From an uncultured Bacteroidales bacterium (GTDB lineage Bacteria; Bacteroidota; Bacteroidia; Bacteroidales; VadinHA17): a stretch of 64,000 bases of DNA. The notes under the pieces were generated by a model. It was not told where the DNA came from, did no database searches, and saw only the letters and a list, made by a program, of their open reading frames with translations. Of this stretch, positions 5,158 to 59,623 are shown one piece after another. The stretch lies in assembly GCA_963816365.1 (NCBI GenBank), contig CAWFKG010000018.1, positions 24,950 to 88,949 of the forward strand, given 5' to 3'. The position numbers and the translations under genes are program-made. Within the stretch, counting starts at the first letter, position 1. Each line of letters starts with the position of its first letter.

Positions 5158-5189
5158 AAGTAGTAGGGTGTCTCAAATGTTGTCTTTTT

Positions 5190-5765
5190 ACCCCCAACCC
5201 CCCATATAGGTGCGTGTAAAAACTATCTCAACCCCCCAACCCCATAGGCGTCAACCTAAGCTTTGGGAATGAATGAGATACTGCATAAAAAAGTTTCCCC
5301 TCCTTTTGAAGGAGGGGTGGTCGGGAAGATTGATTATCTTGTACATACAGAATTTTATTTCCCGACCGGGGTGGTTGATTCATTGCTTTCTTCTTACCTT
5401 TATTGGTATGAAAAACAAAAACCTCTTTAACAGGAAAAGCCTTAAATTCTTCAGATCATCACTTAGGAACAAGTCCATTTCTGCTGAGGCTGAGTTATGG
5501 AACTTTTTAAAATCAAAAAAACTTAATGCAAGAAAATTTAGAAGACAATACAGTATAGGTAACTACATAGTTGACTTTTTAATCAACCACCCCGGCCGGT
5601 ATCAGTATTCGTATCATAATTATAAAGTGGTCCGGCCACCCCTCCTTCAAAAGGAGGGGAAATGTATCAGGCTTATATCCAATTTTTTAAACTCTCTCCA
5701 TAATTTACTAAATTCAACTCCTTAGGTTGACGCCTATGCTCCCAACCCCCCATATGGGGGGCTGA
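5190..5765. repeat. Three nested inverted-repeat pairs bracketing a DUF559 remnant
   Basis: Outer pair: CATAGGCGTCAACCTAAG (5243-5260) / CTTAGGTTGACGCCTATG (5721-5738), 18/18. Middle pair: 5296-5325 / 5633-5662, about 27 nt with 2 mismatches; each arm contains the hairpin CCCCTCCTT-N3/4-AAGGAGGGG. Inner pair: CCCGACCGGGGTGGTTGATT (5361-5380) / AATCAACCACCCCGGCCGG (5581-5599). Extra CCCCCAACCCCCC heads lie at 5190-5210 and 5231-5248. Confidence 0.85.
5408..5600 (+). pseudogene. DUF559 (endonuclease-like) gene remnant; N-terminal ~58 codons only, catalytic core missing
   Basis: MKNKNLFNRKSLKFFRSSLRNKSISAEAELWNFLKSKKLNARKFRRQYSIGNYIVDF matches the N-terminal part of DUF559 proteins. It then runs directly into the repeat-derived tail LINHPGR.... 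The rest of the 150-aa ORF 5273..5725 is a translation of inverted repeats. Confidence 0.6.
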
Positions 5766-5894
5766 AAAAATCAGAATGACGAACATTTGAAATCTGAATT
5801 CAGAAATCTGATTCAGTTCTAAATTCCCTGTTCGTTTGTTCGTCATTCTTAATTCATTGATTTAAAGTGCCCCAATAAGGGGTTTTAGGGGGTT
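5739..5894. repeat. ~156-bp non-coding element with C-run/G-run hairpin termini; single-unit relative of the 57.5-58.4 kb array
   Basis: Left end CTCCCAACCCCCCATATGGGGGGCTGA. Internal perfect 13-bp inverted repeat AGAATGACGAACA (5773-5785) / TGTTCGTCATTCT (5838-5850). Right end GTGCCCCAATAAGGGGTTTTAGGGGGTTG. The end motifs recur at 57488-57517 and 58422-58460. Confidence 0.7.
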
Positions 5895-5952
5895 GATATA
5901 TTGCGGATAAGTATGATATTTCATAACTTTATGGAATAATTCATCTCGCTGC

Positions 5953-11439: not shown

Positions 11440-11981
11440 TTATTCTTTGCTTTTTTTAGTTTTTGTTGCAGGCTTTTTCTCAGCCGGTTTCTTCTCAGCA
11501 GCTTTTTTCTCTGCAGTTTTTTTGGACTGAGTTTTCTTTGCCGGTGCTTCTTCTTTTCTTGCAGCTGTTTTTCTGGCGGCTTTCTTCACCTTTATAGCTT
11601 CTTCAGCAACTGTAACATCAGCTACTTTTGATTCTGCTTTTTTAGGTGCTGCTCTTTTTGGTGAACTCACACCGTTTATACTGATAATTTCAACCTGAGT
11701 AAAGTTCTGACGGTGTCCGTTTTTGACCCTGTAACCTTTTTTCCTTTTCTTCTTGAAAACAATTACTTTGTCACCTCTCACCTATTGTCAAGAATCTTTC
11801 CTCCGACAACTGCATCTTTAATTGTAGGCTCTCCGATTGTTATTTTACCTTCATCCTCAATTAAAAGAACCTTATCAAATTCTACTTCTTTTCCCTCTTC
11901 AAATTCCAGTCTGTGAACAAAAATCTTTTTGCCGTGCTCTACTTTAAACTGCTGACCTGCAATTTCTACGATTGCGTACAT
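11440..11981 (-). CDS. rplU: 50S ribosomal protein L21 with a ~75-aa Lys/Ala-rich C-terminal extension; one frame break near 11780
   Basis: 11778..11981 gives [14 protein letters not shown]...[16 protein letters not shown]. 11440..11781 continues [31 protein letters not shown] and then a [12 protein letters not shown]-type tail. The junction is consistent with one missing G in a G-run. Confidence 0.9.
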
Positions 11982-16382: not shown

Positions 16383-17597
16383 TCACGATGCCTTCAGGAT
16401 CTTCAGGTTTACTCTTTCAAGTTTCCTGTTAGCATAATCGATAGTTATTTCCAGCTCATTTGTTTCAACTGACGGCATTTCGAACATTGCATCAAGCATG
16501 ATGGTCTCACAGATCGATCTTAAGCCTCGTGCCCCAAGTTTGAATTCAATAGCTTTATCCACAATATACTCCAGAACGCCATCAGCAAAGGTGAGCTCAA
16601 TATTATCCATTCTGAACAGTTTGATGTACTGTTTCACCAGTGCATTTTTTGGTTCCGTAAGTATTGCTCTGAGTGCTTCCCTGTCGAGAGGATTCAGATG
16701 GGTGAGGACAGGCAACCTGCCTATTATTTCGGGTATCAGTCCGTACGATCTCAGATCCTGTGGTGCGATGTACTGAAGCAGATTATCCTTATCCACCTTT
16801 TCCCTTATTTTTGAGGCGCCAAAACCAACTATCTGGGTATTAAGTCGTTGTGCAATTTTCTTCTCAATGCCTTCAAAAGCTCCTCCGCAGATAAAAAGAA
16901 TATTCTTTGTATCTACAGGGATCATTTTCTGTTCAGGATGTTTTCGTCCGCCCTGTGGCGGCACATTCACTATTGATCCTTCCAGCAGTTTCAGGAGTCC
17001 CTGCTGAACACCTTCACCCGATACATCACGGGTTATAGATGGATTGTCACCTTTCCGTGCAATCTTGTCTATCTCATCGATAAATACGATGCCTTTTTCA
17101 GCAGCTTTTACATCATAATCTGCATTCTGAAGAAGCCTGGTCAGAAGGCTCTCAATATCTTCACCAACATATCCTGCTTCAGTCAGAACGGTTGCATCGA
17201 CAATTGTAAAGGGAACATGCAGCATTTTTGCAACGGTTCTGGCAAGAAGTGTCTTTCCCGTACCGGTTTCACCAACAAGGATGATATTTGATTTTTCAAT
17301 TTCAATATCTTCTGCATCAGGCTTTTGCATCAGCCTTTTATAGTGGTTATATACAGCTACCGAGATTATTTTTTTTGCCATATCCTGACCAATAACATAC
17401 TGGTCGAGAAAATTCTTAATTTCTGCAGGTTTAAGAAGGTTTATGGTCTCAAAAGGAACATTTTTTTTATTTCCAAGCTCTTCGTTCATTATGCTGTGAG
17501 CCTGTTCAATACAGTGGTCACAGATATGGCCTTCGAGACCTGCAATAAGCATATTGGCCTCTTTCTTGGTTCTGCCGCAAAATGAACATTTATCCAT
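16383..17597 (-). CDS. clpX: ATP-dependent Clp protease ATP-binding subunit ClpX
   Basis: Intact 404-aa ORF with the zinc-binding N-terminus CSFCGR...CDHC, Walker [18 protein letters not shown], and sensor motifs. Confidence 0.96.
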
Positions 17598-19784: not shown

Positions 19785-19867
19785 TGCGGATGAAGGGACT
19801 CGAACCCCCACGTCACGAAGACACAAGATCCTAAGTCTTGCTCGGCTACCAATTACGACACATCCGC
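19785..19867 (-). tRNA. tRNA-Leu (anticodon TAG), class II with long variable arm
   Basis: The minus-strand sequence GCGGATG...CAAGA-CTTAGGA-TCTTG...GGTTCGAGTCC...CATCCGC-A folds by eye. It has a perfect 7-bp acceptor stem, a 5-bp anticodon stem with loop CTTAGGA, a long variable arm and a TTCGAGT T-loop. No CCA is encoded. Confidence 0.85.
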
Positions 19868-24086: not shown

Positions 24087-24092
24087 ATGATT

Positions 24093-24153
24093 GCGGATTT
24101 CGGATCTGTGATTTCGGATTTCGGATTGCGGATTCGATCGGATTTCGGATTTC
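24093..24153. repeat. Degenerate short tandem repeat (GGATTTCG-type) between convergent recQ and the GT2 gene
   Basis: GCGGATTTCGGATCTGTGATTTCGGATTTCGGATTGCGGATTCGATCGGATTTCGGATTTCC. Confidence 0.7.
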
Positions 24154-24163
24154 CTCCTGAATA

Positions 24164-25243
24164 TCAGAGAGTAAAATAATACCCAGAAAGACATAAAAAG
24201 GATATATTAGCTGAGCAGGCAGAAACCATCTCATCAGTGGTCTTTATTGTATCTCTTAAGTGGTATTTTTCAGGATCAGAAAATCGGGCAGAGATTTCAG
24301 GACAAATACTGTAAGGAAAACAAACGCAAACCCGAGGGAAAATGAACATAGATACAAAATAAAAGATCTGTAGAAGTACTGCAACAAATACTGACAGTGC
24401 CAGAAATATGGTAAACAAGTCAGTGTAATCAGTGCTTTTTGAAATCCACCTGCTTCTCTGCTTCAGAAATGACCCGAGAGATGACGAGCCCTTGTTGTTA
24501 CCAGTGCATCAGGCGATTCGAGCCACAATATTTTTGAATTCTTTTCTTTTTTCAGACTGTGCAGAAGAAAATATCATCACCGGAACTTATTTCATCATGA
24601 AGATTATCTGAATGATTAAGATATTTTCCTTTTGAAAAAGCAAGGTTTGCACCATTACACATGGTCCCATCTCCAGAGACAAGCAGATCCGGCAGTAATT
24701 CCCTGCAGGCTCAAAACTCAAGCTCCTGGAAATTTCCGAAAAATCCTGCGGACGGCTTTTATCTGAACGGGACAGATAATCATATCAGGTCTGTTTATTT
24801 CATAAAATGCAGCAATTGTTCTGATCCAGCTCTTCCCCATTGTGCAATCAGCATCAGTTGTGATAATTAATTCAGCCTTTGCAGCCGATATTCCTGTTCT
24901 CAGAGCCTGTTTTTTCCCATTCCCGTTATTTAATATCAGGACATTGCCAGATACAGTAAATTCTGATGCGATATTCAAAGGTTTTGTCTGTTGAATTATC
25001 ATCAACAATTATAACCTCAAATAAATTTCCGGGATAATTCTGAGCTCCAATGCTTTCCATGACAGAAGGGAGATTTTTTTCCTCATTGCGGCAGGCAATA
25101 ACCACGGATACAAAAGTTTGCGGTTCTGCAGTGAGGCTGAAGGTCCTGATTTTGAGCAGACTTCTGTAATTTCTTAGAATGAGAATAAGGTAAGGAAGAA
25201 TCAGTATAACCGGCAGCCAGTACATAATTATTCCTTCATCCAT
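24164..25243 (-). CDS. Family 2 glycosyltransferase (membrane-anchored); frame broken at least 3 times
   Basis: The N-terminal TM segment is followed by VSVVIACRNEEKNLP...IIVDDNSTDKT (24926..25243), ...GKKQAL..GI..A..ELIITTDADC (24718..25008), and a hydrophobic C-terminal fragment (24164..24418). Confidence 0.72.
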
Positions 25244-29126: not shown

Positions 29127-29179
29127 TTTGCAAATCTGAAAAAATGCATATATTTGCAAAATAAATGCATAAATATGCA
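29127..29179 (+). promoter_or_regulatory. argR promoter candidate (-33 TTTG 29127-30, -7 TATATTTG 29149-56) overlapped by two ARG-box-like palindromes
   Basis: TGCATATATTTGCA (29145-29158) and TGCATAAATATGCA (29166-29179, a perfect TGCATA-AA-TATGCA palindrome). Their starts are 21 bp apart. The second covers the argR ATG (29175). The region is the divergent carB/argR spacer. Confidence 0.5.
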
Positions 29180-29663
29180 AAAGACTAAAAGGCTTCTGGC
29201 AATAGAAAAAATAATTACCGAAGAGAATATTTCGGTTCAGGAAGAATTGCTCAGAAAATTGAAAGGAAAAGGGATAAGCTGTACACAGGCTACGCTATCC
29301 CGCAATTTAAGGCAATTGGGAGTAGGCAGGGTCCCGGACGGCAAAGGAGGATACAGGTATTCCTTATCAGAAAATATAAGGAATTCTGAGAAAATATCGC
29401 CAAGGCTCAATATTGTTCCGGTCATACAGGATATAGTTGAAGCAAAGGGACTTATTGTCATAAAAACTATTCCGGGAAATGCCAGCAATACGGCATTTTT
29501 TATAGATGGCTCATCAAGGTATGAAATAGCAGGTACAATTGCCGGCGATGATACAATTCTGGTAATTCCGAGAGACGGAGTCTCTACCCAGCAGGTTCAT
29601 ACCTGTCTGGAAATCATTCTCCCGGGAATACATGAACAGGTGAAGAAGGATCACAAAGGTTAA
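29175..29663 (+). CDS. argR: Arginine repressor ArgR
   Basis: [50 protein letters not shown] (winged-helix N-domain), then the C-terminal [12 protein letters not shown] oligomerisation/arginine-binding motif. Confidence 0.9.
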
Positions 29664-54718: not shown

Positions 54719-55189
54719 CTCCCCCTGCCAGGCTAATCTTTTATCACATCTCAGTTCATTGGGTGCTATTAGTAATCACATGCGACTTTTTTGTAAAACC
54801 TTTTATGCCACGAATGTGGCTAAATTTGAATAACCCCCGGTGCAACCGGGGGTCAGCTAACTCTCTAATTTTTAGCCCTGAAGGGGCGATATATAATTGG
54901 ATTTAATTAAAGCATTTTGTATTCTCACTAAAAAAGTGACTTTAAGAGTATCGTCAAATACTAAAGGAATCTGGGATAACACCGGACGAAAGATTTTTTC
55001 CTTAATTAATTATATCCAGCTCCTTCAGAGCTGTAGGATTTGTGTTGAGTTTAACCCCCGGTTCCACCGACGGTTGCACCGTCGGTTGCACCGGGGGTTA
55101 TTCAAATTTGGCTCCTTCAGAGCCAATTAATGAACGGCATTTCTAGATATTAAAATAGATGTGTATAAAGATTAGCCTGCCAGGGGGAG
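54719..55189. repeat. ~470-bp nested-palindrome, MITE-like non-coding element
   Basis: The outer arms CTCCCCCTGCCAGGCTAATCTTTTATCACATC (54719-54750) / GATGTGTATAAAGATTAGCCTGCCAGGGGGAG (55158-55189) match apart from a few positions. The inner pair is AAATTTGAATAACCCCCGGTGCAACCGGGGG (54822-54852) and its reverse complement at 55055-55109, where a 12-bp GGTTSCACCGNC unit is triplicated. There are further pairs (AGCCCTGAAGGGGC 54874-87 vs GCTCCTTCAGAGC 55019-31 and 55111-23) and AT-rich TTAATTAA-containing pairs around the centre. Confidence 0.8.
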
Positions 55190-56676: not shown

Positions 56677-57396
56677 TTATCTTTTATGAATACCACCTGC
56701 ACTTGATGAATGGGAGTCCACATATTTTGGATCGCCCTTATAATTGATACCTCCGGCACTTGAAGCTCTTGCAGTTATTCTGTCCGTGACATAAACATCA
56801 GCATCACCTGCGCTAGATACCGATATATCTGCTTCCCTTGATCTAAGTTCATAAGCATTCAGATCACCTGCACTGCTAAGGTCAGCTCTTAACATGTCAG
56901 TTTCCCCTTTGAGGGTTATATCTCCTGAACTGCTGATGTCGATATCTATGTTTTTTGCATTTACATCCAACTTGATATCTCCGGCACTGCTTGCTGATAA
57001 TTCTAGTTTGTCGCTCTTGATCGGACTCTCTCCGTAAACATCACCCGCGCTTGTTGTCTTTACCGAATTCACCTCTTTCATGGTAACATAAACCCGCTTC
57101 CTTTCGGCATCGCGGATATTATATTCGCTATAAACATTCAGGATTCCATTTCTGACTTCCGTCAGGATATATTCGTGTAAATTCTCATCAGCCTCAACAG
57201 TAACTTCCTCATTATTACCCTGTTTGAGATAGACATCAATACCTGAGCTAACTTTTACTCCGGTGAAAGAGTCAGTTTTTCTTTCTTTTGTGACCACCTT
57301 CCCATGTCCCTCGACTGTTCTCCAGTGTTGAGCCAGGGCTGAATGCGAGATACCTAGAATAATGATGACGATTGTTAACGATCTGAGGCTTTTCAT
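56677..57396 (-). CDS. DUF2807 / head GIN domain-containing secreted protein
   Basis: Intact 239-aa ORF with a signal peptide, FTGVKVSSGIDVYLKQG..EEVTVEADENL...ILTEV.NG.L, then repeated SSAGDI/SSSGDI beta-helix-like units. Confidence 0.75.
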   Translation of the reverse strand: MKSLRSLTIVIIILGISHSALAQHWRTVEGHGKVVTKERKTDSFTGVKVSSGIDVYLKQGNNEEVTVEADENLHEYILTEVRNGILNVYSEYNIRDAERKRVYVTMKEVNSVKTTSAGDVYGESPIKSDKLELSASSAGDIKLDVNAKNIDIDISSSGDITLKGETDMLRADLSSAGDLNAYELRSREADISVSSAGDADVYVTDRITARASSAGGINYKGDPKYVDSHSSSAGGIHKR

Positions 57397-57489
57397 ACTT
57401 TTCTAATTTTATGATTTTGAAATCCAATCCTGATAAAGACAGGAAGAAAATCAAATCGTTGCATAAAAATTGAAAAGTTATTGGTGTAA

Positions 57490-58392
57490 CCCCCAACCCC
57501 CCCAAATGAGGGGCTAACTCAATTATGAATAATAGAACAAACGAATTTTGAAATGAGAACTCAATTATGCATTCTGAATTCGAATGTTTGAACAAACGAA
57601 TTTTGAAATGAGAACTCAATTATGCATTCTGAATTCGAATGTTTAAATGATTCTGATGTTCAATCGTTCCCATGGTTTCAACCCCCAACCCCCCCAAATG
57701 AGGGGCTAACTCAATTATGAATAATAGAACAAACGAATTTTGAAATGAGAACTCAATTATGCATTCTGAATTCGAATAATTGAACAAACGAATTTTGAAA
57801 TGAGAACTCAATTATGCATTCTGAATTCGAATGTTTGAACAAACGAATTTTGAAATGAGAACTCAATTATGCATTCTGAATTCGAATGTTTGAACAAAAG
57901 AATTTTGAAATGAGAACTCAATTATGCATTCTGAATTCGAATGTTTAAATGTTCTGATGTTCAATCGTTCCCATGGTTTCAACCCCCCAACCCCCCAAAT
58001 GAGGGGCTAACTCAATTATGAATAATAGAACAAACGAATTTTGAAATGAGAACTCAATTATGCATTCTGAATTCGAATGTTTGAACAAACGAATTTTGAA
58101 ATGAGAACTCAATTATGCATTCTGAATTCGAATGTTTAAATGTTCTGATGTTCAATCGTTCCCATGGTTTCAACCCCCCAACCCCCCCAAATGAGGGGCT
58201 AACTCAATTATGAACAATAGAACAAACGAATTTTGAAATGAGAACTCAATTATGCATTCTGAATTCGAATGTTTGAACAAACGAATTTTGAAATGAGAAC
58301 TCAATTATGCATTCTGAATTCGAATGTTTAAATGTTCTGATGTTCAATCGTTCCCATGGTTTCAACCCCCCAACCCCCCAAATGGAGGGCTT
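57490..58392. repeat. Hierarchical tandem repeat array: ten 55-bp units within four higher-order repeats plus a fifth partial head
   Basis: The 55-bp unit is AACAAACGAATTTTGAAATGAGAACTCAATTATGCATTCTGAATTCGAATGTTTG. It starts at 57536, 57591, 57728, 57783, 57838, 57893, 58029, 58084, 58221 and 58276. Each block has a head (CCCCCAACCCCCCCAAATGAGGGGCTAACTCAATTATGAATAATAG), then 2, 4, 2 or 2 units, then a tail (AATGTTCTGATGTTCAATCGTTCCCATGGTTTCAA). The heads start at 57490, 57682, 57983, 58174 and 58366, giving periods of 192, 301, 191 and 192 bp. Confidence 0.95.
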
Positions 58393-58420
58393 TGGCAACT
58401 TTGCTTCATATAAAGAAAAT

Positions 58421-58471
58421 TAAAAGTCCCCCAATTGGGGGATTTAGGGGGTATATGGGGGATTTAGTGGG
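58421..58471 (+). repeat. G-run right terminus of the array (CCCCCAATTGGGGG hairpin plus GGGGG-N5-GGGGG-N5-GGGGG-N7-GGG)
   Basis: TAAAAGTCCCCCAATTGGGGGATTTAGGGGGTATATGGGGGATTTAGTGGG. The G-runs lie at 58437-41, 58447-51, 58457-61 and 58469-71. It ends 10 nt from the stop of the ABC-2 permease gene. Confidence 0.85.
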
Positions 58472-58480
58472 TTTTGCGGC

Positions 58481-59623
58481 TCAGTGCCATTTGAAGATCT
58501 TTAACCCTATAGAGAAAAACGAAATTCCGATAATCAGCAGGATTAAAATTGGCAGTGCAACTTCATGATAACCTGCCCCTTCATTGAAAATACTTCTTAC
58601 ACCGTCGGTCAGCATTGTCAACGGCAGGTTCCTGATAACAGGCAGGCTCCAGTCGGGAAAATTCTGATAGCTGAAAAAAATCCCCGAAAGGATCATCATT
58701 GGAAATACAACGAAGTTGATCATACCGTTTCCGGCTTCGGTATTTGAGGTGCGTGATGAGACAAATACTGCGATACCGGCAAAAGCAATATTACCTGCGA
58801 GAAAAACTAAAATAAGAGCTGAAATGCTGCCCTGGATCGACAATCTGAATGCAAATAGCGCAAAAAGAAATAGAATCAGTGATTCAATAAAATTCATCGT
58901 GACCCTTACGGTAATAAGGGCGATCAGAAAATGAGATTTCTTCATCGGTGTTGCAACAAGTCTTCTTAAAAGCTTCTTCGATCTCTTTTCGATAATTCCA
59001 TAACTTATTCCCCACATACTCGACATCATAACTCCCATTGTTATTAGTCCCGGAACAAGGAAATCAATATATCTTGTGCCGGTTACAGTAAGAGGTTTAA
59101 TATCTGAATTGTTCGCGACAGGCTGTATTGACCCTTGCCCAATAACACTGCTAAGCTTGAGGTAAGTCAGCTGAGCATCAGGATTCATCGGGTCGAACTC
59201 ATATTTCAACGAATCATTTATGCCCGTCAGGAGCACATTAATTGTACCTCTCTTAAGCAACCTGACTGCATCGTCCCACTTTAAATTATAAAAAAGGAAA
59301 ACCGAGTTGCCCAGCTTTTCATCCTTTATTGTGTATTTCCACCGCCAGGTACCTGCTACCTTTGAGGAATCCTTTTCGCAGTTCTTTTCCAGAAAGCTCT
59401 CAATAACTGAATTATGGTGGACCGACAGAGGGTTTTCAGATATATTTATTATGGCGACTTTACGAATTACAGTGGTTTTTTTCGTAAACGCGAGACCCAG
59501 TCCCAATGACATCAGAATAGGAAAAAGTATTCCCCAGAACAGAACTTCGGGTTCCCTTATTATCTCACGAAACAGGGCAGATATTAGCTGCCATAGCTGT
59601 TTAAATCTGATCCATCTATTCAT
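58481..59623 (-). CDS. ABC-2 type transporter permease
   Basis: Intact 380-aa ORF with an N-terminal TM, a large extracytoplasmic loop and five C-terminal TMs, typical of ABC-2 exporters. It overlaps the upstream ATPase gene by 8 nt. Confidence 0.8.
   Translation of the reverse strand: MNRWIRFKQLWQLISALFREIIREPEVLFWGILFPILMSLGLGLAFTKKTTVIRKVAIINISENPLSVHHNSVIESFLEKNCEKDSSKVAGTWRWKYTIKDEKLGNSVFLFYNLKWDDAVRLLKRGTINVLLTGINDSLKYEFDPMNPDAQLTYLKLSSVIGQGSIQPVANNSDIKPLTVTGTRYIDFLVPGLITMGVMMSSMWGISYGIIEKRSKKLLRRLVATPMKKSHFLIALITVRVTMNFIESLILFLFALFAFRLSIQGSISALILVFLAGNIAFAGIAVFVSSRTSNTEAGNGMINFVVFPMMILSGIFFSYQNFPDWSLPVIRNLPLTMLTDGVRSIFNEGAGYHEVALPILILLIIGISFFSIGLKIFKWH

Follow-up and report, generated by a model that had tools for sequence, protein, structure and literature searches.

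A nested tandem-repeat array in a Bacteroidales genome is probably an amplified cluster of a small hairpin-ended REPIN/MITE-like element

In an uncultured Bacteroidales bacterium (GenBank assembly GCA_963816365.1, contig CAWFKG010000018.1) most of the gap between the genes of an ABC-2 family permease and of a DUF2807 protein is filled by a nested 0.9-kb array of tandem repeats. It was studied within a window of 64,000 nucleotides, the whole stretch of DNA that was analysed (positions 24,950 to 88,949 of the contig; G+C content 39.4%). The array is probably a recently amplified tandem cluster of a small non-coding element with hairpin-forming ends, which resembles REPINs (doublets of repetitive extragenic palindromes [REPs] that form hairpins) and MITEs (miniature inverted-repeat transposable elements). 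The ends belong to a family that is very common in low-GC Bacteroidota-like genomes and apparently undescribed. Members of the family have hairpin- or triplex-type ends consisting of C-runs and G-runs, multiply in tandem, sit at the 3' ends of genes and regularly bracket a small gene encoding a DUF559 nuclease. REPIN/MITE-like elements with triplex-motif ends are of a known kind but have not been described previously in this clade. The array itself most likely has no dedicated function and is probably a neutral, lineage-specific expansion of repeat DNA.

An earlier, sequence-only reading of this DNA had described ten near-identical 55-bp units, arranged in four higher-order blocks of 192, 301, 191 and 192 bp plus a fifth head, in a 1.08-kb gap between two genes of the same strand. 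Tandem Repeats Finder, which that reading had recommended as a check, recovered the 55-, 192- and 301-bp periods across 57488-58389, with 98-100% of positions matching. The gap measures 1084 bp and both genes are located on the minus strand. Exactly ten units were also obtained by motif scanning with up to two mismatches (starts at 57535, 57590, 57727, 57782, 57837, 57892, 58028, 58083, 58220 and 58275). The 55-mer does not occur again in the 64-kb window outside the array, and 0 occurrences were expected in shuffled sequences. The five C-run heads start at 57490, 57682, 57983, 58174 and 58366, i.e., at spacings of 192, 301, 191 and 192 bp, and division of blocks 1-4 into head, units and tail assigns 2, 4, 2 and 2 units of 55 bp to them. 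The components of the array are as follows:

57490..57681, plus strand: block 1, with a head (C5 AA C7 AAATGA GGGGC TAAC...), two 55-bp units and a 37-bp tail
57682..57982, plus strand: block 2, with a C5/C7 head, four units (the first ends AATAATT, the fourth has C>A at 57899) and a 36-bp tail
57983..58173, plus strand: block 3, with a C6/C6 head, two units and a tail
58174..58365, plus strand: block 4, with a C6/C7 head that has T>C at ATGAACAATA, two units and a tail
58366..58452, plus strand: complete minimal element, with the fifth head (C6 AA C6 AAATGGAGGGC), a spacer of 34 nt and GTCCCCCAATTGGGGGATTTAGGGGGT as right end
58436..58472, plus strand: G-rich right end with a small tandem duplication, TGGGGGATTTAGGGGGT then TGGGGGATTTAGTGGGT, and four G-tracts on the plus strand

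The C-run lengths of the five heads (5/7, 5/7, 6/6, 6/7 and 6/6) and both unit variants, the one in the first unit of block 2 at 57775-57782 and the C>A exchange at 57899, had been read correctly. The statement that the blocks share the same head and the same tail holds broadly but not in every detail: the tail of block 1 reads AAATGATTCTG, with one additional A, as opposed to AAATGTTCTG in the other tails, and the head of block 4 carries the T>C variant ATGAACAATA. With regard to a possible G-quadruplex formed by the G-runs, four G-tracts are present only in the duplicated right end (58437-58470). The array is non-coding, as had been proposed, in that the 115-aa and 63-aa open reading frames match no Pfam or NCBIfam family and none of the periods (55, 191 and 301 bp) is divisible by 3. 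Nor is it CRISPR-like: the units follow one another with no spacers in between, and all the sequence that separates the heads is likewise repetitive. The lone match to a CRISPR-DR family of Rfam reached 17 bits against a threshold of 39.

The sequence-only reading could not assign the array to any named class. Its head, though, is the end of a widespread hairpin-ended element. Further copies of the head motif CCCCCAACCCCCC are located at 5191 and 5739 of the window, a variant head, CCCCCCAACCCC, is located at 5229-5245, and the 64-kb window contains three separate loci with heads. In a metagenome-assembled genome (MAG) of Porphyromonas cangingivalis, CCCCCAACCCCCC forms the left end of an element of ~100 bp, the right end of which is the inverted copy. 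When metagenomes were scanned with the pattern CCCCCAACCCCC-N2-9-GGGGCTAA, at least 128 instances of the head motif were found in at least 120 stretches, on contigs with a median G+C content of 41%. The canonical left end consists of C5-6 AA C5-6, a loop of 3-6 nt (TAAA or TGAA), G5-6 and CTAA. It is followed by an AT-rich core of 30-150 nt and by the right end, an inverted left end composed of C5-6, a loop (TTTA), G5-6, 2-5 nt and G5-6. Among the matches listed there are 49 distinct full elements (58 matches, both strands) with sizes of 52-233 bp, mostly 70-120 bp; 47 of these 49 are intergenic, and their gene contexts are tandem in 24 cases, convergent in 14 and divergent in only 3. The family thus lies mostly at the 3' ends of genes, a distribution characteristic of REP-type elements. 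In 26 of the 49 elements the loop of one end is the exact reverse complement of the loop of the other, compared with 14.3 +/- 2.1 in shuffled pairings (maximum 22 in 2000 shuffles), which indicates that the two ends are maintained as inverted copies of each other. Two to four copies are found on single contigs in five of the loci fetched for comparison (designated by L numbers), namely L086, L098, L108, L147 and L181. Like MITEs, the canonical relatives have terminal inverted repeats, of ~25-30 nt, and no transposase gene. No description of the C-run/G-run family was found in the literature searched, which does not prove that none exists. Solo heads are also present on 17 contigs of a viral collection (IMG/VR, L211-L227), which lack both a DUF559 gene and, within 400 nt, a partner end and are therefore uninformative.

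The fifth head and the sequence as far as 58452 make up a complete minimal element, in which the right end at 58426-58452 is the pairing partner of the head at 58366. Its minus strand folds into a single long hairpin (-55 kcal/mol, z -3.1). The right end, GTCCCCCAATTGGGGGATTTAGGGGGT, shows 100% identity across 30 nt with the right end of L130:11398-11477 and closely resembles the one of L175, and the element shares its build with L130:11398-11477 and L175:8858-8948. The blocks can be compared with the single-copy relative in the same window, which lies near a pair of heads:

5189..5260, plus strand: two tandem heads, 41 bp apart, ACCCCCAACCCCCC... and AACCCCCCAACCCC...
5739..5895, plus strand: single-copy relative of ~155 bp, in which an AT-rich core separates the head CTCCCAACCCCCCATATGGGGGGC from the right end GTGCCCCAATAAGGGGTTTTAGGGGGT

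In alignment A1, a block shares the head with L159, window positions 5739-5895 and L130:7190-7315, and AGAACAAACGAA, TGCATT and TTCTGAwTTCGAAkGTT with the cores of these single-copy elements. The core at 5739-5895 has in common with the array unit TTCGTTTGTTC, the reverse complement of GAACAAACGAA in the unit, and TGAATTC. In the same alignment the array tail corresponds to the segment CATTCTGATTTCAT that precedes the right end of single-copy relatives, and GTTCCCATGG in the tail replaces their right-end hairpin, GTCCCCC-loop-GGGGG. Judged from these alignments, the 55-bp unit is homologous to the AT-rich core of the single-copy relatives. The homology of head, core and tail identifies each 191/192-bp block as one copy of the element, in which 55 bp of the core have been duplicated and the right end has decayed. 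Heads 1-4 contain ATGAGGGGC and head 5 contains ATGGAGGGC, compared with the canonical ATGGGGGGC; the differing decay suggests that the array blocks and the terminal element derive from two distinct decayed copies that were once adjacent. The array had been considered more structured than REPs or bacterial interspersed mosaic elements (BIMEs), but n copies plus one extra end is the architecture of ordered REPIN clusters (PMC3116915).

The near-identity of the units had been taken as a sign of recent amplification or ongoing homogenisation, such as unequal recombination between blocks; near-identical strains that differ by one head copy support recent amplification by unequal recombination or slippage. 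The loci L203 and L204 are ~99.6% identical (one substitution in ~250 nt), and the number of their 38-bp head copies differs by exactly one, which is direct evidence of a change in copy number on the time-scale of strains. Tandem multiplication of blocks that include an end is found at various lengths in the family: 31 bp x 2 in L102, 29 bp x 2.7 in L105, 50 bp x 2.1 in L098, 58 bp x 2.7 in L120, 58 bp x 2.1 in L179, 163 bp x 1.8 in L201 and 63 bp x 3.6, in the form of a right-end array, in L202. In L192, 23-bp units are nested within periods of 68 bp and 242 bp, and L210 contains six tandem heads.

The array most likely arose in three steps. In the ancestral state, one copy of the element with a decayed right end would have been situated beside a second, minimal copy just downstream of the gene of the ABC permease. 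Slippage between the short direct repeats AACTCAATTATG...GAACAAACGAA would then have duplicated 55 bp of the AT-rich core. Two adjacent heads constitute a direct repeat of ~25 bp, at which unequal recombination or slippage would duplicate everything from one head to the next; in the second step the whole 191/192-bp element would have been copied head to tail four times between neighbouring heads. Further unequal exchange between the 192-bp copies would alter the copy number, and in the third step one block would have acquired two more 55-bp units. An array of n full copies and one extra head, as observed, is the expected product of such events between neighbouring heads.

Absence of the array from the same site in related genomes marks it as lineage-specific. 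Its flanks contain the following features:

56677..57396, minus strand: gene of a DUF2807 (GIN-domain) protein, the downstream flank
57437..57463, minus strand: promoter motif TGCAAC-N17-GTCT before DUF2807, similar to those of extracytoplasmic function (ECF) sigma factors and kept in relatives
58427..58442, minus strand: terminator-like hairpin, TCCCCCAATTGGGGGA then CTTTTAATTT, 39 nt past the permease stop codon
58481..59623, minus strand: gene of the ABC-2 family permease, the upstream flank and last gene of an ATPase-permease pair

The glucose-6-phosphate isomerase encoded in the window by pgi shares no more than 81% identity with the proteins of peat, fen and soil MAGs of uncultured Bacteroidales/Rikenellaceae, from which it follows that the species is absent from the 185,579 reference genomes. 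L002, L003, L005 and L009 retain the core gene order permease, DUF2807, pgi, preceded upstream by the ATPase gene and upp or pstS; only L003 has the full syntenic gene set. In these four related MAGs the gap between permease and DUF2807 amounts to ~80-290 bp and is without the array, and in L003 the DUF2807 promoter begins ~16 nt past the permease stop codon. The array is therefore a lineage-specific insertion or expansion between the stop codon and the conserved promoter. The motif TGCAAC-N17-(C/T)GTCTTTA is found 60-70 nt upstream of the DUF2807 start codon in L001, L002, L003 and L005; it takes the form TGCAAC...TGTCTTTA in the relatives and CGTCTTTA in L005. It looks like an ECF sigma factor promoter. 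In the window the motif is intact, and the left edge of the array lies ~25 nt upstream of it. One further match to TGCAAC-N15-19-GTCT in the window is located at 17229 on the plus strand.

Unrelated repeats have landed or expanded in the permease-DUF2807 gap more than once. In the closest relative, L001, the contig ends without the ABC genes, and a minus-strand open reading frame lies upstream of DUF2807 (L001:1-1500). The same region contains several C-run/G-run hairpins (ATCCCCCTAAAGGGGGAC, GCCCCCCTTTAGGGGGGATGGGGGGC) upstream of DUF2807, which suggests that related repeats struck the same site in another lineage. The orthologous gap of L005 contains a different small repeat, the 21-mer ACGCAGAGTTCGCAAAGAAAT x 2.5 (L005:7026-7079).

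Several observations weigh against the array being an amplified copy of a dispersed element. The array heads are decayed, with GAGGGG in place of G6, so that only a 4-bp hairpin is possible. A 24-mer of the unit has no exact match in the 185,579 species genomes or in the JGI metagenomes, and BLAST searches with unit and tail found no match in 200 fetched loci; dispersal of this subfamily in its own genome is thus unproven. The flanks of the 49 elements contain no consistent direct repeat that would represent a target-site duplication; many of them merely prolong the inverted repeat (e.g., TTTTTG...CAAAAA, AAAGAAG...CTTCTTT). A pair of empty and filled sites with clean borders was not found for the family, which we infer to be mobile. 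In addition, the copy numbers and C-run lengths are those of one assembly, and an RNA or regulatory role, considered below, keeps a small probability.

Three other explanations were weighed. Instead of by unequal recombination, the blocks could have been formed by an active mobile element that inserted several times, site-specifically, next to or into a resident head. Elements of the family are often arranged head to tail or nested, as in L202, where a full copy with DUF559 precedes one that carries an internal deletion; the DUF559 remnant of the window lies between two heads and is flanked on each side by CCCAACCCC; and heads accumulate before the DUF559 genes of L203, L204 and L210. All four blocks, however, share the 55-bp duplication, the decayed right end and the head ATGAGGGGC, for which in-place copying of one resident block is the simpler explanation. 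Since there is also no recognisable target-site duplication and no intact DUF559 or transposase gene within the 64-kb window, we consider repeated insertion unlikely. Even less probable is that the array is real but that its four blocks, its ten units and the C-run differences are artefacts of assembly or basecalling. The nested 55-bp and 192-bp periods are beyond the resolution of short reads, and differences in homopolymer length (5/7, 6/6, 6/7) and single-base indels such as that in the tail are typical errors of long reads. A second assembly for a check of the copy numbers, sought by means of the exact permease, ATPase and pgi proteins, is not on record. Against an artefact stand the private substitutions of individual blocks (57778-57779, 57899 and the T>C exchange in the head of block 4), which neither collapse nor expansion of repeats would create, and the flanking genes, which are intact long open reading frames. 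In addition, an independent short-read contig (Logan) that carries the DUF2807 gene stops ~121 bp upstream of the gene start, at the edge of the array, as expected where short reads cannot span a genuine repeat. In practical terms, the array breaks short-read assemblies and may differ in length between strains.

That the array is a functional regulatory device, i.e., a source of small RNAs, an iteron-like array that binds proteins or an insulator of variable copy number that tunes DUF2807, was proposed in similar form by the sequence-only reading, and we regard it as very unlikely. The position immediately upstream of DUF2807's conserved promoter of ECF-like type would suit such a device, and the palindromes of the unit (GAATTC, CATTC...GAATG) could bind a dimeric protein. 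A sigma-70-like match, TTCAAA-17-CATAAT, is repeated on the minus strand; the sigma-70 consensus is not the one used by Bacteroidetes. Specific roles have been suggested for ordered clusters (Bertels and Rainey, PMC3116915). No evidence for the proposed roles was obtained. At the gathering threshold of Rfam 15 the whole window yielded only a tRNA (19785-19867), and at E <= 10 all matches within 57300-58600 were far below threshold (miRNA and snoRNA noise). The Bacteroidetes -33/-7 promoter (TTTG...TAnnTTTG) does not occur in the array on either strand, where only relaxed -7-like matches were seen on the plus strand, and the folding of block RNA is unpersuasive (z -2.5 and -1.7). The array is missing at the same site in the four related MAGs, as described above. 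An iteron array of a plasmid or phage was rejected: the neighbours are chromosomal housekeeping genes in conserved synteny, and plasmid and phage collections yielded no match. The terminator-like hairpin is a separate matter. It is the right-end (inner) hairpin of the minimal element, and as a side effect it could plausibly serve as a terminator or 3' stabiliser of the ABC operon and shield the DUF2807 promoter from read-through.

The amplified REPIN/MITE-like element has full-length relatives, the DUF559 genes of which hint at how such repeats spread. In the loci selected by their heads, five intact DUF559 genes (122-137 aa) are bracketed by ends of the family. L161 has the order head, DUF559 gene, right end; in L120 three tandem heads precede gene and right end; in L094 and L136 a 32-nt perfect inverted repeat surrounds the gene, and L088 is similar. 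Decayed cassettes are present in L189, L091, L167 and the window (5244-5739), and none was found in 1.16 Mb of control loci anchored at pgi. An independent test was based on 928 homologues of the L161 protein (E <= 1e-10, all ~120-140 aa), for which DNA was fetched according to contig size or taxon label only. In all seven DUF559 proteins sampled in this way (L201-L206, L208, L210), a head is located 60-150 nt upstream of the start codon, and in six of the seven a recognisable right end is located at or just past the stop codon. In L202 the internally deleted second copy, ~200 bp long and head to tail with the full copy, has the appearance of a nascent short element. Between the family ends lies a gene for a PD-(D/E)XK nuclease of family DUF559 (PF04480) and not for a known transposase; the protein has matches to YcjD of E. 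coli and, with E = 2.5e-14, to 3HRL, a solved 'endonuclease-like protein'. Literature searches found no paper linking DUF559 to repeats, MITEs, REPINs or homing endonucleases.

The cassette of the window has the following structure:

5244..5739, plus strand: degraded DUF559 cassette, with the 18-bp inverted repeat CATAGGCGTCAACCTAAG / CTTAGGTTGACGCCTATG and inner hairpins CCCCTCCTTTTGAAGGAGGGG, between head motifs

It is part of a mosaic intergenic region (5189-5900) between a HIT-family and a ComF-like gene that consists of heads, the decayed cassette and the 155-bp relative of the element. The same cassette, and the same 18-mer CTTAGGTTGACGCCTATG abutting a head, recur in L091, L096, L167, L189 and L196.

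In E. coli K-12 (L207, NC_000913.3, 1351204-1351760), a partial BoxC/TMECO motif is located at the stop codon of the DUF559 gene ycjD, the 3' end of the gene is partly duplicated, and TMECO no. 9 lies ~170 nt past the stop codon. The chance of such proximity between ycjD and a TMECO is ~0.4% (23 TMECOs in 4.64 Mb). ycjD is missing from ~2,000 of 5,426 complete E. coli genomes; among 25 E. coli genomes those without ycjD tended to have fewer matches to motif parts, a trend confounded by phylogeny. We tentatively propose that the C-run/G-run ends form a REPIN-like system with a DUF559 (Vsr-like PD-(D/E)XK) nuclease as the partner enzyme instead of a tyrosine transposase, although the odds are rather against it. 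Full elements would then consist of head, DUF559 gene and inverted head, short elements and clusters such as the array would be non-autonomous or decayed derivatives, and the partnership would extend to ycjD and the BoxC/TMECO triplex motifs of E. coli. Cleavage or stalling at the ends would explain the tandem multiplication of blocks that contain ends. To our knowledge, the origin and spread of BoxC/TMECO have remained unexplained since the 1990s. If the nuclease drives the spread or instability of repeats, a function would be assigned to DUF559, a large family whose role is not known, BoxC/TMECO-type repeats would gain a mechanism, and there would be a second case, with another enzyme, of a long-term partnership between repeat and enzyme as in REPINs and their REP-associated tyrosine transposases (RAYTs).

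Among the known systems, REPIN clusters and BIMEs (Bertels and Rainey 2011, PMC3116915) are closest in architecture. The family shares with REPs and REPINs the extragenic location, two inverted hairpin-forming ends separated by a short spacer, folding into one long hairpin, and occurrence as singlets, doublets and ordered tandem clusters of near-identical copies including their flanks, here four blocks and a fifth head in ~900 bp. In both systems inverted ends bracket one small gene, RAYT in REPINs and DUF559 here. The differences are that the bracketed gene encodes a PD-(D/E)XK DUF559 nuclease and not a Y1/HUH RAYT transposase (no search of the fetched loci was aimed at RAYT), that the array resides in Bacteroidota and has a second, inner level of repeats, the 55-bp units, and that its mobilisation is putative. 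Moreover, the ends are three-block C-run/G-run structures and not GTAG- or CGTC-tagged REPs. REPs are defined by a GTAG or CGTC tetranucleotide at one end of an imperfect palindrome of 20-40 bp (Di Nocera et al. 2013, PMC3733652); family ends start with C-runs and have neither tag, and assignment to REPs by tag was rejected.

The ends resemble the BoxC/PIT/TMECO potential intrastrand-triplex motifs (Holder et al. 2015, PMC4666352) in the succession of C-stem, loop, G-stem, short loop and second G-stem. Such C-G-G arrangements are potential triplex motifs of class II, and their complement, C-C-G, belongs to class III (PMC4666352). TMECO-type motifs are strictly intergenic and highly conserved, often form inverted doublets and occupy loci that are unusually unstable between strains (PMC4666352). 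Their consensus, CCCTCNCCC N3-6 GGGNGAGGG N3 GGGNGAGGG (PMC4666352), does not apply to the family, the stems of which are homopolymeric C5-7/G5-7. TMECOs have 9-nt stems (CCCTCNCCC/GGGNGAGGG), a 3-nt second loop and occur in Proteobacteria, whereas here homopolymer stems of 5-7 nt and second loops of 2-5 nt are found. The general ITxF pattern, three consecutive triplex-compatible blocks with stems of 6-15 nt and loops of 1-6 nt (PMC4666352), agrees with the sequences of the canonical relatives (C6 AA C6 TAAA G6; C6 TTTA G6 CA G6). The array heads fall outside it, since their G-stems, GAGGGG or GGAGGG, contain 4-5 G.

MITEs with internal minisatellites are known from Porphyromonas gingivalis, namely BrickBuilt and PgRS/MITE464 (Klein et al. 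2015, PMC4596501). Like the array they are intergenic, non-coding elements of Bacteroidales with a leader, an internal tandem minisatellite, a tail and inverted-repeat ends, and their repeat number varies between copies. They differ in their IS5-like terminal repeats, GAGACCTTTGCA, and in units of 23 or 41 nt, they have no sequence similarity to the array, and they repeat the inner unit only, whereas the array repeats the whole element including the left end. Membership in BrickBuilt was rejected on account of the C-run ends and the 55-nt unit of the array, which lacks GAGACCTTTGCA. A more distant parallel is provided by the higher-order repeats of satellites, in which nested periods (here 55 in 192 bp) and near-identical higher-order copies also occur, as unequal crossing-over predicts; unlike these, the array is a single small prokaryotic locus derived from a dispersed element and has no structural role in the chromosome.

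Another repeat region of the window, between a GH3 gene and pgi (54719-55189), consists of nested inverted-repeat elements. The outer arms comprise 33 nt (88% complementary; 54719-54751 and 55157-55189) and the inner arms 35 nt (91%; 54819-54853 and 55078-55112), with hairpins of the sequence CCCCCGGTGCAACCGGGGG and, at 55059-55093, 2.9 copies of a 12-bp repeat. Since pgi and GH3 are only ~150 bp apart in L001, the repeats at 54719-55189 also look like an insertion. Other short tandem repeats were revealed by Tandem Repeats Finder at 24089-24153, 11474-11523 and 29142-29182, with GATTTCG (8.9 copies), a 15-mer (3.3 copies) and a 21-mer (2.0 copies) as the repeat units.

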